This document shows positions 5,672 to 36,866 of a stretch of DNA of 48,894 nucleotides, in pieces (position 1 is the stretch's first letter; each line of letters starts with the position of its first letter). A program made the position numbers and the translations under genes. The notes beneath the pieces are model-generated. The model was not told the DNA's origin and ran no database searches. It worked only from the letters and a program-made list of their open reading frames with translations. Source of the stretch: Alphaproteobacteria bacterium (lineage in GTDB: Bacteria > Pseudomonadota > Alphaproteobacteria > UBA6615); the NCBI GenBank assembly GCA_028822385.1, contig JAPKDV010000003.1, positions 1 to 48,894 of the forward strand, given 5' to 3'.

Positions 5672-6297
5672 CGTTCAATCACGTTGTTGCTCCGCAGGAA
5701 TTCGAGGAGTGGCAGCATGGGAAGACCCAGAATAGTGAAGAAATCGTCATCGATGCTGGAAAAAAGCTGAATGCCCAGGCCTTCAAGCAAATAAGCGCCG
5801 ACCGACTGGCAAGCGGCCTCACCCACCGTCTCGACATAATAGTCCATGAAAGTATCGCTCAGTTCGCGCATGTGCAGGACAGCATCGGCATTAACGTGCC
5901 AGATCACATCACCATCAAGTACAGCACAAACGCTGGCATGTAGTGTGTGTTCCTTACCCATCAATCTTTTTAGATGTGCGCGCACGCCGTCCAGATCGGC
6001 CGGCTTCTCAAACAGAGCGCCGTCACACGACAGAACCTGATCAGCACCAATCACGATGCAACCTTCGTGTTTGGCTGAAACTCGATGCGCCTTCAACTTA
6101 GCTAGTGCTTCGGCGATGGAGACATGTGTCGCATTTTCGACAAGCATTTTATCACGAACAGAAGCTTCATCCACATCTGACGGATCGACAATATGCGGCA
6201 CGCCCGCGGAGGTTAGCAGGCGGGTCCGGACCTCGCTTCCCGAGGCCAGAACGAGCGCGTGCGCATCAGATTTTGCGATCATGTCAGGAGATGACAT
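5668..6297 (-). CDS. maf: Maf family nucleoside triphosphate pyrophosphatase (start at 6297 or 6282)
   Basis: LVLASGS..R..LL, IGADQ, KP, SVGAY.LEG.G.QLF..I..D.FTILGLP; conserved ppsR-maf-aroE-coaE-dnaQ operon. Confidence 0.9.
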   Translation of the reverse strand: MSSPDMIAKSDAHALVLASGSEVRTRLLTSAGVPHIVDPSDVDEASVRDKMLVENATHVSIAEALAKLKAHRVSAKHEGCIVIGADQVLSCDGALFEKPADLDGVRAHLKRLMGKEHTLHASVCAVLDGDVIWHVNADAVLHMRELSDTFMDYYVETVGEAACQSVGAYLLEGLGIQLFSSIDDDFFTILGLPMLPLLEFLRSNNVIER

Positions 6298-7150
6298 CGC
6301 TGGGTTTCCTCTTGGTCGTCTCACCTTTTTGCTCCAGCCGGCGGTTGTATAAGGTCAGGATCGCTGCAGATGTTTCTTCGATCGACCGCCGGGTAACATC
6401 AATGACCGGCCACCGGTTGTGGGCAAAGTAACGTTTAGCCTCGGTTATCTCGACACGTACTTTGTCAAAATCGACATAGGGCGTCTCCTCATTCTGTTGC
6501 AGGGAACTCAGCCGTGCCCGACGCAACTCCACAAGTCGCTTAGGGTCATTTGTCAGGCCGATCATCAGCGGGTTTTCAAGCTTGTCCAAACCAGGCGGCA
6601 ACGGAATACCCGGAACCCAAGGCACGTTAGCTGCTCTAATCCCCCGGTTGGCAAGATAGAGGCAGGTAGGGGTTTTCGAAGTGCGCGACACGCCGACCAA
6701 TACAACATCCGAAGCGTCCAATTCATGTGCCCGTTGGCCGTCGTCGTGGGAGAGGGTCCAGTCCATCGCTTCGATGCGCTGAAAATAAGCCGCGTCTAGT
6801 TCGTGCTGACCGCCAACTACATGCGTCGGCAGCACACCAAGATAACTGCCGACCGCAGCAATCACGGGGTCTAACACCGAAATACACGGCACTTGTCGTA
6901 ACCGGCAACCCCGCACGAGTTGGTCGCACAGATTGTCGTTAACCAGCGTAAAAATTACCGGTCCGGGATTTTCGCTGATTTCTTCAAGGACCAAATCCAT
7001 TGCCTTTGGGGTTCGTGCCATCGGCCAGGAATGTTCGACAATATCCGTGTCCTCAAACTGTACGAGACACGCACGCGCAACTGACTGAATAGTCTCACCA
7101 GTAGAATCCGAAACGAGGTGGACATGATATTTCGGGGTCTGTTTATCCAT
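6284..7150 (-). CDS. ppsR: PEP synthase / pyruvate-phosphate dikinase regulatory protein (kinase-pyrophosphorylase, DUF299)
   Basis: HLVSDSTGET, YFQRIEAM, HDDG, GVSRTSKTPT..YLA, IDVTRRSIEETSA. Confidence 0.95.
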   Translation of the reverse strand: MDKQTPKYHVHLVSDSTGETIQSVARACLVQFEDTDIVEHSWPMARTPKAMDLVLEEISENPGPVIFTLVNDNLCDQLVRGCRLRQVPCISVLDPVIAAVGSYLGVLPTHVVGGQHELDAAYFQRIEAMDWTLSHDDGQRAHELDASDVVLVGVSRTSKTPTCLYLANRGIRAANVPWVPGIPLPPGLDKLENPLMIGLTNDPKRLVELRRARLSSLQQNEETPYVDFDKVRVEITEAKRYFAHNRWPVIDVTRRSIEETSAAILTLYNRRLEQKGETTKRKPSDVIS

Positions 7151-7624
7151 GAAGTACGCTCATCTGGCTGTGTGCAGTTTCTCTGGGCTGGTGGATAAGC
7201 ATTACTTTTTTAACAAGTCAGTACTTTGTTCAACGTTATGCCGTTCGTTGTACCCCCTGTCATCCTAAGGACTAGAAAGTTTCCCGAGCATGGGTGTGAA
7301 AATACAATGCACATTGTGTTCTGGGGTTTTTAGAGACTGATCCACAAATCCTTGTCACTCGTAAGGGTTTGCAATCAAGGAGATAGCTCAAATACTCACA
7401 ATTCAATCTGCCCATATAAGTATTCTAAATTATGGTGTGGAAAATCCTGTGCACATAAAATAATCCCTATGACTCACTGGACATCTACTACTTCAATTCA
7501 AATTATCACTACGTTCTTTTAACTATTTTTGTAATGCATCGAACAACCTCGTTCGCCATAGTCTCAGCAACTTCGATGTTGAACTCAACACTGAAAAATT
7601 CACTCCGACCCCAAAGATCGCGCC
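7151..7624. other. Chromosomal replication origin oriC
   Basis: AT-rich gap between divergent ppsR and hemE, the canonical alphaproteobacterial location. DnaA-box-like 9-mers: GGTGGATAA 7190-7198, TGTGAAAAT 7295-7303, TGATCCACA 7338-7346, TGTGGAAAA 7436-7444. IHF-like AATCAAGGAGATA 7373-7385, GANTC 7471-7475, CTACTACTT 7485-7493, then an AT-rich tract. Gene orientation diverges here and parS/parAB lie 11-15 kb away. Confidence 0.88.
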
Positions 7625-21873: not shown

Positions 21874-22811
21874 ACGAAACGCCGACACGCCGCCGATTAG
21901 GGCGCGGGCTATCTGCCCTTCTTGGGGATGACGGTCGGGACTTTCAGGAACTTGAAAACACAAAATCACCACGCGAACTGCCAGTTGAACAGTTGCAACC
22001 AGGTGAGTTTCAGCCTCGGGTTCGTTTCGATGATGAAGAACTGAGCGCTCTTGTTGAATCCGTTAGGGCCAAGGGTATCCTTCAACCCATTCTCGTTCGA
22101 CGAGATCCCGTCCAAGCTGACGTCTATGAAATTATCGCCGGTGAACGAAGATGGAGAGCGGCACAACGAGCACAATTACACACTGTACCGGTTATTATCC
22201 GTGAACTGACTGATCAGGAAGCGCTTGAAATTGCGCTGATCGAAAACATCCAGCGTTCCGATCTTTCCGCCATCGAAGAAGCTTTAGGCTATCAGAGGCT
22301 GATCGGCGAATTTACCCACACCCAAGATGCCTTGTCTAAGGTTGTTGGGAAGAGCCGAAGTCATGTCGCGAATGCCTTGCGTCTTCTAACGCTGCCGGCT
22401 GAAGTTAGAACAATGGTCGATAAAGGTGAGTTAACGGCGGGGCATGCACGCGCGCTGGTTGGCCGTGAAGACGCCTTGACCCTTGCTCGCGAAATTTCTA
22501 GTTCTGGACTTACGGTGCGTGATATCGAGGCCCGGGTTTCTAATGGATTACCGAAGGCAAGAAAATTAAAAAATTTAGCTCGACGGAAAAGCGCTGACAC
22601 CCTTGCGCTTGAGCGCGACGTTTCTGATGCAATCGGTCTTAAGGTAGCGATAGATCTGAAGGGCGGCGAACATTCTGGTCGGGGCAAATTGTCGATTGAT
22701 TTTAAAAGCCTAGACCAGCTCGACGATGTCTTGCGGCGTCTTAACCAGACGACCAATAGTAAGGGTATGCCTGATGCCCTAAAAACAGCTACTTTATCTT
22801 TCAACTCATAG
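21870..22811 (+). CDS. parB: Chromosome partitioning protein ParB
   Basis: LGRGLSALL, QPR..F, G.LQPILVR, IIAGERRWRAA, ENIQR.DL, HTH GKSRSHVAN.LRLL, GHARAL. Confidence 0.97.
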   Translation: MNETPTRRRLGRGLSALLGDDGRDFQELENTKSPRELPVEQLQPGEFQPRVRFDDEELSALVESVRAKGILQPILVRRDPVQADVYEIIAGERRWRAAQRAQLHTVPVIIRELTDQEALEIALIENIQRSDLSAIEEALGYQRLIGEFTHTQDALSKVVGKSRSHVANALRLLTLPAEVRTMVDKGELTAGHARALVGREDALTLAREISSSGLTVRDIEARVSNGLPKARKLKNLARRKSADTLALERDVSDAIGLKVAIDLKGGEHSGRGKLSIDFKSLDQLDDVLRRLNQTTNSKGMPDALKTATLSFNS

Positions 22812-34288: not shown

Positions 34289-35542
34289 TCAGGAAGGTTT
34301 GCTGTGCACAGCGCGCATCTGGCCCCCAAATAGTATTGTCCCGGCCATTGTGGCTATTGCCATTACAGCAAAGGTGTATGGAACGGAGTTCCAGTTACCA
34401 GTTATCTCAAACGCCGCCGCGGCGATGAGCGGACCTGCGAGTATACCTAGGTAGCGCCCGGTCAGGACTACCGCAAAAGCGTCGGTTCCTGCACGATGCG
34501 CGCCCAGGAGGGTTGATGGTAGTGCCCAAAGTGATGTTGGCGTAAGGCCTGCCGCAATGCCCCAAACTATTAAACTTGCGAGACCGATTGCAGGCTCGCC
34601 GGCAAATGGGATCATTAACCAACCGAGGGTCTGTAGGCCTAGCGCCATAGTCAGAAGTTTAATCACGCCGAGGCCGGTTTTTAGGAGTACACCACCGAGA
34701 AGTGCGAAGATCAGCAACACTACGACTGGGATCTGGTTCGTTAAAACTGCTCCGTCGGCCGTAAACCCGCGCACATCGACGAGATAAACTGTCAGCCATG
34801 TGAAATAGGCCGTGAACTGCGCCTGCCAGAGGAAGAACAGTATCGCAGCAAGCCACAATGCTCGGCTTTCCGGCTTTGTCATCGGTGAGGCAGTTGTTGG
34901 CCCCTTGTCTGGACTTGTATTTGCGGATTGTGAGCGGGGTACTGAAGCAAGGCCAGGAACTTTGCCCTTTGCGAGGATATAGCCAGTCCACAAAGCCATC
35001 AGGATGGTTACCAGTGCACCGAACACCCAGACTGGCTGCCAGGAACCAGCAGCAACAGATGGTTGGGCGACGATATTGGCCACCAACTGTCCGACGGGGA
35101 TCCAGGTCGCCTGAGCCGCAATGATGATAGGCAGATGTTTGGGGCCGGCGCTCATATTGGCGAAGGCGGGCATACAGACCGCTAGGACTGCCGCGCCAAA
35201 CCCTTCGATAGTGCGCGAAAACAGCATAATATAGCTACTTTCCGGCCAGCCCAGCCCTATGGCGGTACCAGCTAGCATTAGCGCAAAGGCTGCAAACAGA
35301 TATTGTTTTGCCCCGTTCTGCCGGATCCCGCGCCCGATACGGACACTAACGAGCATGCCGGCAACGGCGAAAATTGACATGAAACCGCCTGCCGAATAGG
35401 TCCCGTAGCCATAAAGTTCGAACATCACCGGAAGTACCGGCGGCACCTTGAATTGAAAATAGGCTGCGATGAATCCCAGTACGATGCCGTAGGAAACGCC
35501 TGTCCAGTTGGTGTCCGTAGTCTGTGTGGCGAGGTAAGGCAT
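34289..35542 (-). CDS. MFS transporter (CynX/NimT-like)
   Basis: About 12 hydrophobic segments in 417 aa; QFKVPPVLP and SRTIEGFG motifs. Confidence 0.85.
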   Translation of the reverse strand: MPYLATQTTDTNWTGVSYGIVLGFIAAYFQFKVPPVLPVMFELYGYGTYSAGGFMSIFAVAGMLVSVRIGRGIRQNGAKQYLFAAFALMLAGTAIGLGWPESSYIMLFSRTIEGFGAAVLAVCMPAFANMSAGPKHLPIIIAAQATWIPVGQLVANIVAQPSVAAGSWQPVWVFGALVTILMALWTGYILAKGKVPGLASVPRSQSANTSPDKGPTTASPMTKPESRALWLAAILFFLWQAQFTAYFTWLTVYLVDVRGFTADGAVLTNQIPVVVLLIFALLGGVLLKTGLGVIKLLTMALGLQTLGWLMIPFAGEPAIGLASLIVWGIAAGLTPTSLWALPSTLLGAHRAGTDAFAVVLTGRYLGILAGPLIAAAAFEITGNWNSVPYTFAVMAIATMAGTILFGGQMRAVHSKPS

Positions 35543-35778
35543 CGGGTTTATCTATGTTTCGGCAAGGCCTGAAGCATGTAGCGCCGTGTTTGACTATTCA
35601 AGTCTACTCGGGGCAGACTTTCTTATGGCGCGGAGCTATATCAGACCGTCACTTTCGGCGCGTTATTGGTTTATGTTAACCCGCTCCTCATGGAAAGATT
35701 ACTATCTTTCACCATCGCTCCATCGTGTGCCGGCGCGGCTTCCGCTATGTGCGTGTGGCAGAAATGCTCGAATATTTA

Positions 35779-35824
35779 TGTCTAATAAATGCGCATTAGT
35801 ATTTACATGCCTATTATTTATGCA
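35779..35824. promoter_or_regulatory. Tandem NtrC-like enhancer boxes
   Basis: TGTCTAATAAATGCGCA (35779-35795) and TGCCTATTATTTATGCA (35808-35824): two 17-bp TGY-N11-GCA boxes with AT-rich cores, 11/17 identical, about 75-120 bp upstream of a sigma54 promoter. Confidence 0.6.
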
Positions 35825-35897
35825 GATTGAATCTAAATTTTTGAGGCCCTCAATCATCTTCTATAGTTAGTTCAATGGATTATTAGGTTTTTTCTAA

Positions 35898-35913
35898 TGG
35901 CACGGGAATTGCA
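35898..35913 (+). promoter_or_regulatory. Sigma54 (RpoN) -24/-12 promoter
   Basis: TGGCACGGGAATTGCA = TGGCAC-N5-TTGCA, with exact GG-N10-GC spacing. Confidence 0.8.
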
Positions 35914-35978
35914 ATGCAGTTGGTTATAATTCGCACTCGAATAATCGGTTGCGGCACCTTGAATACGAAAAGGGGCTT

Positions 35979-36046
35979 ATGCGGAGATGGTCAAGACTGT
36001 GATCAAATTATTCGAACTTGGTGAGGTGCGCAATGAGTACAAATAA
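35979..36046 (+). pseudogene. Probable decayed 5' fragment of a PII (glnK/glnB) gene
   Basis: AAGGGG then ATG (35979), CGGAG, then ATG (35987) opening MVKTVIKLFELGEVRNEYK*. This aligns without gaps to the PII N-terminus (MK)xVxAIIKPFKLDEVR; most differences are single-base changes. Confidence 0.55.
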
Positions 36047-36866
36047 AAGCGTTTCTATTACCTTCTGGGGTGTCCGTGGTTCGATCGCGTGCCCGGGCCC
36101 AGAAACGAAAGAATTTGGAGGAAACACATCGTGTGTTGAAGTCCTGTGCGGTGATAACCGCGTAATTCTGGATGCTGGTACCGGCATTCGCCCCCTTGGG
36201 GCTTCGTTTGAAAGCGGTGCACCAGTCGATGTAGATATTCTTTTAAGCCACACACATCTGGACCACATAATTGGCTTGCCGCATTTCGAACCCGCCTATG
36301 ACGAGGGCTCCCATCTACGCTTCTGGGCCGGAAAATTTTTAGAAGAGAATACGGTCGAAGCGGTTCTGGGCATGATGATGAAGGCTCCTCTGTTCCCGGT
36401 TTCGTTAGGCTCAATGGCCGCTCGGAAAGACTTCAATGACTTTCGTGCTGGTGACACGTTTGAGTTGTCCTGTGGCGCGCAGGTGCGCACCTGCGCGCTG
36501 AACCATCGCGACGGCGCGACTGGCTACCGGATAGAGTATGGTGGCCGTACCATTTGCTACGTGACCGACACAGAACATGTGGAGGGGACCCACGACGAGA
36601 AGATCCTCTCTCTGATCGATGGTGCAGATGTGTTCATCTACGACACGACCTACACAGACGAAGAGTATCAGAGCTATCGTGGGCGAGGGCATTCGACATG
36701 GCAGGAGGGGGCAGCGCTTGCCGAGCGCGCAGGTGTGGGAACCTATGTGCCGTTCCATCATGGCCCGACCCATGATGATAAATTCATGACTAAGATCGAA
36801 CGTTACGCAAAGGACAGACTCGAAAACACCGTTATGGCACGTGAAGGCCTTACGCTTACCTTGTAG
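36033..36866 (+). CDS. MBL-fold metallo-hydrolase (RNase Z / phosphodiesterase-like subgroup)
   Basis: FWGVRGSI.CPG, GGNTSCVEV, LDAGTG, SHTHLDH (HxHxDH), Y.TDTEH, GHS, FHH.P.HDD; GAGGTG Shine-Dalgarno before ATG 36033. Confidence 0.9.
   Translation: MSTNKSVSITFWGVRGSIACPGPETKEFGGNTSCVEVLCGDNRVILDAGTGIRPLGASFESGAPVDVDILLSHTHLDHIIGLPHFEPAYDEGSHLRFWAGKFLEENTVEAVLGMMMKAPLFPVSLGSMAARKDFNDFRAGDTFELSCGAQVRTCALNHRDGATGYRIEYGGRTICYVTDTEHVEGTHDEKILSLIDGADVFIYDTTYTDEEYQSYRGRGHSTWQEGAALAERAGVGTYVPFHHGPTHDDKFMTKIERYAKDRLENTVMAREGLTLTL

Follow-up and report, generated by a model that had tools for sequence, protein, structure and literature searches.

Apparent capture of a glnK promoter region by an MBL-fold hydrolase gene in an uncultured marine alphaproteobacterium

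How does the regulatory DNA of a nitrogen-control gene come to stand directly before a gene for a hydrolase? The question is raised by a short part (positions 35779 to 36046) of a window of 48,894 nucleotides, this window being the whole of contig C91 of an uncultured marine alphaproteobacterium. Here, two NtrC-type boxes, a sigma54 promoter, and the stub of a PII gene precede an intact gene for an MBL-fold hydrolase. An earlier reading of the letters of this DNA (the original prediction) had proposed that a PII gene once resided here, and that its deletion in place left the hydrolase gene under the promoter that remained.

The answer developed below is different. The stub is almost certainly homologous to glnK, and almost certainly reached this place as a copied fragment of a glnK locus that lies elsewhere. 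By sequence, the copied promoter has probably put the MBL gene under nitrogen control. The genome concerned (G000) is a marine metagenome bin of 233 contigs and 2.43 Mb, 89.8% complete and with an estimated contamination of 0.53%. It was compared with 10 other genomes of the genus (among them G005 and G010), which are labelled uncultured Alphaproteobacteria or Rhodospirillaceae.

The stub and its match to glnK

A DNA search with positions 35700-36046 finds the native glnK 5' regions in 6 of the 10 genus genomes, with E-values that run from 2.9e-16 (G005, 74% over 133 nt) to 1.5e-3. The gene that is matched is the third PII gene of the genus, that of glnK-amtB, which begins MKLVMAVIKPFKLDEVREAL. 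To this gene the window can be aligned in an alignment (A1) of nine sequences, consisting of the functional glnK loci of seven relatives, the remnant of glnK on contig C191 of G000, and the copy in the window. From about 35733 to 36031, the window follows the genus glnK locus element by element. The start of the divergent gene, the boxes, the sigma54 promoter, a hairpin, the Shine-Dalgarno sequence, and codons 1-17 all appear in turn.

The original prediction had read the mini-ORF as the decayed 5' end of a PII gene, and had suggested alignment to the PII 5' ends of relatives as a check. The DNA match at E 2.9e-16 bears this out as real homology, not chance. The alignment likewise assigns the boxes, the sigma54 promoter, and the Shine-Dalgarno sequence to that same glnK, as had been supposed. 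The motifs themselves (the two TGY-N11-GCA boxes, the TGGCAC-N5-TTGCA promoter in its exact consensus, the ATG at 35979, the mini-ORF, and the GAGGTG) are present at the positions collected in Table 1.

The promoter pattern across the aligned glnK loci is TGGCAC-N5-TTG(A/T/C)(A/G). In the window, the GG and GC dinucleotides lie 10 nt apart and the site fits TGGCAC-N5-TTGCW. Counted from the first base of this promoter, the two boxes begin 119 and 90 bp upstream. Box 1 is homologous to TGCAC-N7-GTGCA-like sites, and some of the boxes in relatives have near-perfect TGCAC-N7-GTGCA forms.

Among the native glnK promoters of the genus, six of seven have a non-canonical -12 element (TTGAA or TTGTA); the seventh, that of G010, reads TTGCG.

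The coding part of the stub has decayed. Without gaps, the alignment places the ATG at 35987 on the native Leu3 codon and has GCG in the column of the native ATG. The glnK frame continues in the stub as far as Arg17 (36029-36031). Then come a single A and the ATG of the MBL gene. Compared with glnK of G005, 41 of 58 nucleotides in the coding stub are identical. Of the residues, a hand count against the native sequence gives 9 of 15 as identical. The Pfam P-II model (PF00543) finds only the genes on C215 and C151 in G000, and so does not find the mini-ORF as a PII protein. By its alignment, then, the stub is a fragment of a PII gene descended from glnK, and is not a complete gene of about 112 codons. 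The proposal that GAGGTG represents the old Glu-Val codons, with the MBL gene fused directly behind codon 17, is borne out by alignment A1. In its new setting the GAGGTG, whose GAGGT core ends 5 nt before the MBL ATG, is the probable Shine-Dalgarno sequence of the MBL gene.

Between promoter and stub lies the glnK leader hairpin, CCGCACCCGAATGGTCGGTTGCGG, with 9 bp and a tetraloop, which would begin about 7 nt downstream of the start predicted for the glnK transcript. Eight of its nine pairs are kept in all nine sequences, one of the relatives having lost the ninth, and a compensatory double change is seen at one pair. In the window copy, the pairs are preserved through two changes to G-U wobble. 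A search of 35500-36100 against Rfam gave only a chance snoRNA match (E 0.5), which is below threshold, and the hairpin corresponds to no Rfam family.

How much could the motifs say by themselves? The exact sigma54 consensus occurs once in the window; with one mismatch allowed, two sites are found where 1.98 are expected. On both strands of the 2.43-Mb genome it occurs five times, compared with about 2.4 by a hand estimate from base composition. The degenerate TGY-N11-GCA pattern alone is not enriched (38 found versus 66 expected), and the boxes therefore needed independent support. Boxes with an AT-rich interior (at least 9 of 11 positions A or T) number 33 in the genome. Only two of these stand upstream of a correctly oriented sigma54-type site, one in the MBL cassette and the other before glnB. 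A third AT-rich box, at the dead native glnK, has only an unrelated sigma54 match with two mismatches on the other strand.

Where the fragment came from

What stood before the MBL gene in the ancestor can be read from the relatives. In all 9 genus relatives that have the MBL gene, it and an MFS transporter gene are divergent neighbors across a short spacer, with no PII gene. A further set comprised 77 MBL loci from public genomes, each with at least 300 bp of upstream sequence. A divergent MFS gene is found at 32 of these 77 loci. A PII gene within 3 kb is found at none, nor does any have a sigma54 site with one mismatch or fewer upstream of MBL. In a set of 29 MBL loci, no sigma54 match at zero or one mismatch was seen by the scoring used.

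The window retains part of this ancestral spacer. Homology to the native MFS-MBL spacer extends from 35543 to about 35693; from about 35733 to 36031 the match is to the glnK locus. Of the ancestral spacer, the last ~85 bp before the MBL ATG are gone. In these comparisons the copy is lineage-specific, and has taken the place of those ~85 bp. A 22-nt motif, CTATATCAGACCGTCACTTTCG, is retained at 35636-35657; its genus form is CTATATCGGACCGGCACTTTCG, followed by GTTCATGCACACTCC. In all 9 relatives with the MBL gene (L007-L014, L023), its position relative to the MBL ATG is between -98 and -146; here it is -397. Its first bases, CTATAT, may be read by the alphaproteobacterial consensus as the -10 box of a native sigma70 promoter for the MBL gene. 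The motif as a whole could be such a -10 box plus a leader or operator element.

At its locus (L009), G003 carries a near-consensus sigma54-like sequence, TGGCACCTTGTTGGCT, 83 bp before the MBL ATG. As a real promoter this candidate was rejected; it was judged to be a chance variant of the conserved GTTCATGCACACTCC segment, the other eight genus loci being without it.

The right junction of the copy lies at 36031/36032, and the left junction between 35694 and 35732. The CATGG at 35689-35693 is common to both source sequences and could be junction microhomology. At the left junction are 39 bp of uncertain origin, perhaps a decayed piece of the 5' coding sequence of the FAD-monooxygenase gene next to native glnK. 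The right junction is confirmed by an independent study, one 636-nt contig of which covers 35858-36491 (4 differences in 634 nt). The 21-nt stub/MBL junction, sought as an exact match in metagenome contigs, was not found there.

The donor is to be sought where relatives keep glnK-amtB, which they carry on the opposite strand at a distance of 12-27 kb from the MBL gene. As far as the end of the contig, about 15 kb short of the glnK position, the window is collinear with G003, G006, and G010. In G010, the order of genes is aminotransferase, amtB, glnK, and the divergent FAD monooxygenase. In G000, the aminotransferase and FAD-monooxygenase (FAD_binding_3, E 3.8e-33) genes lie 775 bp apart on contig C191 (~5900-6700; locus L083 1901-2700). 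Between these two outer genes is a glnK-amtB pseudogene with multiple deletions, in which amtB is reduced to three short fragments. Its promoter reads TGCCGC...TTGAA, so that the GG of the -24 element is now CC. Its boxes are recognizable and its hairpin is intact. Its glnK has ACG as start codon and an in-frame TAA at codon 12. Here glnK, at about codons 18-24, has been fused by a deletion with amtB near residue 170, by way of similar stretches coding for LT.LG.

A shared breakpoint codon for the two glnK remnants was considered and rejected, because the copy ends at codon 17 and the native remnant is joined at about codons 18-24.

With no glnK at the MFS-MBL locus of relatives and the native locus elsewhere, the cassette is therefore best described as an inserted, copied fragment. 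From which locus was it copied? In a tree built from the aligned region, the copy falls together with the C191 remnant and G005 (90-94% bootstrap). Within the AT-rich part, the copy has its highest identity with C191 (58%, versus 38-47% for the others). In the promoter-to-coding part, the copy is 71% identical to G005 and 65% to C191; its identity to the native locus is 62%. Because of the bootstrap grouping and the affinity of the AT-rich part, the copy can be assigned, with moderate confidence, to the glnK locus of its own lineage. The branch leading to the copy (~0.65 substitutions per site) has about double the length of the one leading to the native remnant (0.29). The copy retains 33 of 46 coding positions and the native remnant 39 of 46 (p = 0.21), a comparison that favors neither order of copying and native decay.

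Other histories might, of course, leave a similar trace. Deletion in place of a resident PII gene after about 16 codons, or the arrival of a whole glnK(-amtB) copy later trimmed to codon 17, would explain why the stub ends exactly at codon 17 and adjoins the MBL ATG, and GCGC-type microhomology at the junction would also fit a deletion. Synteny, however, refutes the strict version, which is the one originally proposed. No PII gene is present at the locus in any of the 9 genus relatives or the 77 others, and the suggestion that relatives might carry glnK(-amtB) between MFS and MBL thus finds no example among them. Further, the native glnK-amtB of the lineage has been identified elsewhere. The fragment also carries the start of the gene across from native glnK, and because this FAD-monooxygenase start is included, it was copied as a block from that locus. 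A trimmed copy is indistinguishable from a direct insertion of 300 bp. Taken together, these deletion histories are improbable.

Transfer of the cassette from the glnK locus of another lineage would, in turn, account for the very long branch of the copy and for its closer resemblance to G005 than to C191 in the promoter-to-coding part. Yet the copy falls inside the G000/G005 sub-clade with 90-94% support, and is nearest C191 in just the AT-rich part that evolves fast. Both G000 copies decayed independently, and this lowers their mutual identity. Such a transfer is thus very improbable. An artefact of assembly or binning, with chimeric junctions or a cassette that belongs to another organism, might be suspected in a bin of 233 contigs whose left junction is unbridged by independent runs. 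Against this suspicion, the contig from the independent study bridges promoter, stub, and MBL gene, and five possible source runs contain 98-100% of the sampled words. The divergence between the copy and the native locus is too great for a misjoin induced by repeats, both flanks are collinear with relatives, and the contamination estimate is low. An artefact has scarcely any probability left. The inserted copy of a glnK fragment is accordingly the history carried forward here.

Is the copied promoter in use?

A constraint test starts from the columns without variation among the seven functional glnK loci, and counts how many of them each G000 copy keeps. In the window copy, 19 of 19 enhancer and promoter positions are kept (among them all 9 invariant promoter columns). 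The leader keeps 25 of 32 and the coding part 33 of 46. The contrast of 19/19 with 33/46 has p = 0.007 (Fisher). In the C191 remnant, the corresponding numbers are 16 of 19, 29 of 32, and 39 of 46. Here there is no contrast (16/19 versus 68/78 for leader and coding part together, p = 0.71).

The core promoter of the copy has undergone one change, from A to C in the -12 element, and this gives the canonical TTGCA. Of the nine aligned sequences only the copy has TTGCA; of the eight others, seven have TTGAA or TTGTA, and the eighth (G010) has TTGCG. An E. coli-type scan finds neither a sigma70 site nor, between the promoter and the MBL gene, anything resembling a terminator. Because the enhancer and promoter positions have all been kept while coding positions have not, the uneven conservation suggests that the copied promoter is still in use.

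A promoter of this type needs partners, and the genome holds some of them. The gene rpoN is present and intact, as a 493-aa open frame on C122 (PF04552, E 8.3e-65). The glnB gene shares the layout of box plus promoter, with its box TGCATATAATTTATGCA placed 110 bp upstream of a sigma54-type promoter; box 2 of the MBL cassette matches this box at 14 of 17 bases by hand count. On C62, at ~13735 on the minus strand, the exact sigma54 consensus TGGCACGATACTTGCA stands 60 nt before urtA, which encodes the binding protein of a urea ABC transporter (TIGR03407, E 3e-45 on the first 120 residues). Because of this urtA site, the sigma54 nitrogen regulon seems alive in G000. The original prediction had called the cassette orphaned; with rpoN, a sigma54-type glnB promoter, and a sigma54-consensus urtA promoter all present, that word does not fit.

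The activator is a harder matter. Each of the 10 genus relatives has at least two sigma54 activators, and each of the three that were checked (G001, G005, and G009) has an NtrC-type protein with GAFTGA. The region of ~19 kb that carries ntrBC-ntrYX in relatives (L084, L085) is unassembled in G000, and its flank matches the first bases of contig C155. Thus, the absence of NtrC is probably an assembly gap. The PII genes number two in G000 (the glnB type on C215 and a second on C151), compared with three or four in relatives.

The proposed mechanism can now be given. Under nitrogen limitation, phosphorylated NtrC would bind the two boxes within 35779-35824. Bound NtrC would then activate sigma54 RNA polymerase at 35898-35913. 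The transcript, predicted to start at ~35924-35926, would carry the hairpin leader and the stub, and the MBL protein would be translated from the GAGGTG site. This nitrogen-dependent promoter would probably act beside the retained native promoter upstream of it.

The same DNA might instead be a neutral relic. In that case, the copied glnK fragment would be silent, the MBL gene would be transcribed from its native promoter through a long 5' leader, and the intact state of the copied promoter would reflect luck or a recent event. A relic would be consistent with the retention at 35636-35657 of the motif CTATATC...CACTTTCG, which is conserved in the genus, and with the lack of a sigma54 activator among the genes found in the G000 assembly. 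Moreover, this lineage has abandoned its native glnK-amtB, which may signal a reduced reliance on Ntr control. A silent fragment does not, however, readily explain why 19 of 19 enhancer-promoter positions were kept while 13 of 46 coding positions changed, or why the promoter of the native copy decayed in the same genome. Nor does it explain why the sole change in the -12 element moves towards consensus. The capture is not recent, because the branch of the copy is long (~0.65 substitutions per site). A neutral relic is therefore unlikely, although quite conceivable.

Several observations nonetheless weigh against a promoter captured from the lineage's own glnK and working for the MBL gene. In the constraint test, the groups of positions were chosen post hoc, the alignment included the copy, and the AT-rich part is uncertain. 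The matches to the sigma54 activator domain (PF00158) in G000 are only of 25.9 and 21.6 bits, in frames of 765 and 787 aa, and a real loss of NtrC is possible. No RNA sequencing runs are listed among those that contain this stretch of the window. The retained CTATAT motif may be the native MBL promoter, to which the cassette would then add a promoter without being the sole one. As to the origin of the copy, BLAST detects no similarity between it and the C191 remnant, and the intergenic region searched against its own genome gives no second copy, only the match to itself; the remnant was found via synteny for this reason. Their grouping as sisters is weakly supported, with 79% bootstrap over the full region and 39% in the promoter-to-coding part. 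They lie on different contigs of the bin and may stem from different strains. Finally, among contigs from four independent runs, 35483-35857 is uncovered and the left junction is unbridged. With these points entered, the whole statement of capture, promoter activity included, is still held to be rather probable.

One can go further, and view the cassette as an actively maintained nitrogen switch. The widely conserved pair of MFS gene and MBL phosphodiesterase gene would then make a nitrogen-scavenging module in this marine lineage. From glnK the MBL gene would also have inherited a leader for post-transcriptional control or translational coupling, formed by the hairpin and by the mini-ORF, which is in the glnK frame and extends 11 nt into the MBL gene. 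This extended reading is distinctly doubtful.

Known relatives of the event, and the features of the locus

An existing promoter, together with the 5' fragment of its gene, has been copied before another gene and would give it a new regulatory input. This is what is meant by promoter capture by duplication, for which rnk-citT in E. coli is reportedly the case from experimental evolution. The event described here differs in being natural and old, and in belonging to an uncultured marine alphaproteobacterium. It differs also in that the copy is not tandem, the donor being 12-27 kb from the MBL gene in relatives. Further, a whole bidirectional intergenic region was taken, with stubs of both flanking genes, and the donor operon has since died.

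A second comparison is with switched intergenic regions, or horizontal regulatory transfer, in which upstream DNA is replaced by non-homologous regulatory DNA, as the available text of one report describes it (PMC5890482). As there, upstream DNA of a conserved gene pair has been replaced while the flanking genes stay. Unlike the cases in the available text of that report (PMC5890482), only the gene-proximal part has been replaced here, and the donor can be named as a paralogous locus of the same lineage, not the allele of another strain.

As for the promoter itself, the enterobacterial consensus of the NtrC box is TGCACC-N5-GGTGCA. Like other NtrC/sigma54 promoters of glnK-amtB, the one here has two dyad boxes ~90-120 bp upstream of GG-N10-GC and then a leader, and it is orthologous to the glnK promoters of its own genus. 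It is unlike these in that it is predicted to drive an MBL hydrolase gene, in the AT-rich interiors of its boxes, and in having the canonical TTGCA where the genus mostly has TTGAA or TTGTA. In Caulobacter, glnK-amtB and glnBA are direct targets of NtrC according to ChIP-seq and RNA-seq, as given in the available part of that study (10.1101/2023.06.06.543975).

Thus, the locus is a well-documented natural promoter capture, a known kind of event and not a new kind of system. Its value is more specific. Natural capture is usually deduced only from a non-homologous upstream region; here donor, recipient, junctions, and ancestral state can all be read. The genome even supplies an internal control, in that the abandoned native promoter decayed while the transplanted one stayed at consensus. 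If the reading is true, regulatory DNA outlived its original operon by moving to a new gene, which would make this a clean case of reuse after the loss of glnK-amtB during genome reduction in a marine alphaproteobacterium. It would also offer a testable hint that a widespread and uncharacterized pair of MFS and MBL-hydrolase genes is linked to nitrogen supply.

The features are collected in Table 1.

Table 1. Features at the MBL-fold hydrolase gene, in positions of the window
Feature	Position	Strand	Evidence or remark
MFS transporter gene	34289..35542	-	Pfam MFS_1, E 9.6e-23; conserved divergent neighbor of the MBL gene
Retained native MFS-MBL intergenic DNA	35543..35693	.	local alignments to relatives' spacers reach ~35693
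Left junction zone, 39 bp, origin uncertain	35694..35732	.	clear homology to neither source
Remnant of FAD-dependent monooxygenase gene start	35733..35762	-	...ATGTGCGTGTGGCAG here, native ATGTCCATGCGGCAG; alignment A1 and local alignment to C191
Box 1 TGTCTAATAAATGCGCA, NtrC-type enhancer site, TGT-N11-GCA	35779..35795	+	TG/CA ends invariant in 9 aligned sequences
Box 2 TGCCTATTATTTATGCA, NtrC-type enhancer site, TGC-N11-GCA	35808..35824	+	resembles glnB box
Sigma54 (-24/-12) promoter TGGCACGGGAATTGCA, TGGCAC-N5-TTGCA	35898..35913	+	exact consensus; homologous to glnK promoters of 7 relatives
glnK leader hairpin, 9 bp	35931..35954	+	RNAalifold, 9 sequences
Former glnK Shine-Dalgarno AAAAGGGG	35968..35975	+	aligns with AAGGGG of all relatives
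ATG opening MRRWSRL, then stop	35979	+	sequence reading
Decayed stub, glnK codons 3-17 in original frame	35987..36031	+	MVKTVIKLFELGEVR versus LVMAVIKPFKLDEVR
Mini-ORF of 19 codons, MVKTVIKLFELGEVRNEYK, then stop	35987..36046	+	last 4 codons and stop out of frame within the MBL gene
GAGGTG, former glnK Glu15-Val16 codons	36023..36028	+	sequence and alignment
MBL-fold hydrolase gene, intact, 277 aa, HxHxDH motif	36033..36866	+	Pfam Lactamase_B_2, E 1.4e-22

What does the hydrolase do? Its protein is 65-73% identical to eight of its nine genus orthologues; the ninth, from G002 and with in-frame stops, gives 56-57%. The AF2 model has a pLDDT of 91. With this model, Foldseek places nearest YhfI, an ELAC homologue, RNase Z, and a PhnP-family diphosphatase (E 2e-15 to 1e-13), followed by nucleotide-bound Brucella proteins and Apyc1 (E to 3e-11), all at 15-19% identity. 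A search of PDB sequences with the protein returns only RNase Z (E 2.8e-7), and an Atlas search only generic MBL clusters. The label "phosphodiesterase-like," given to the protein at the outset, is fair at the level of the fold, by the Foldseek resemblance of the model.

Two minor observations concern PII genes elsewhere. On contig C10 of G002 (locus L023 and ~22221-22530), the MBL orthologue has three in-frame TGA codons, and a nearby PII gene is split, with two TGA. The MFS-MBL spacer of G002 is nearly identical to that of G007, and these stops look like indel errors or recent decay in the assembly. In G000 itself, on C151 (~5994-7588, minus strand), the second PII gene (MKFIVAIIKPYKLNEVRE...) follows immediately behind an amtB-like gene, whereas glnK usually precedes amtB.

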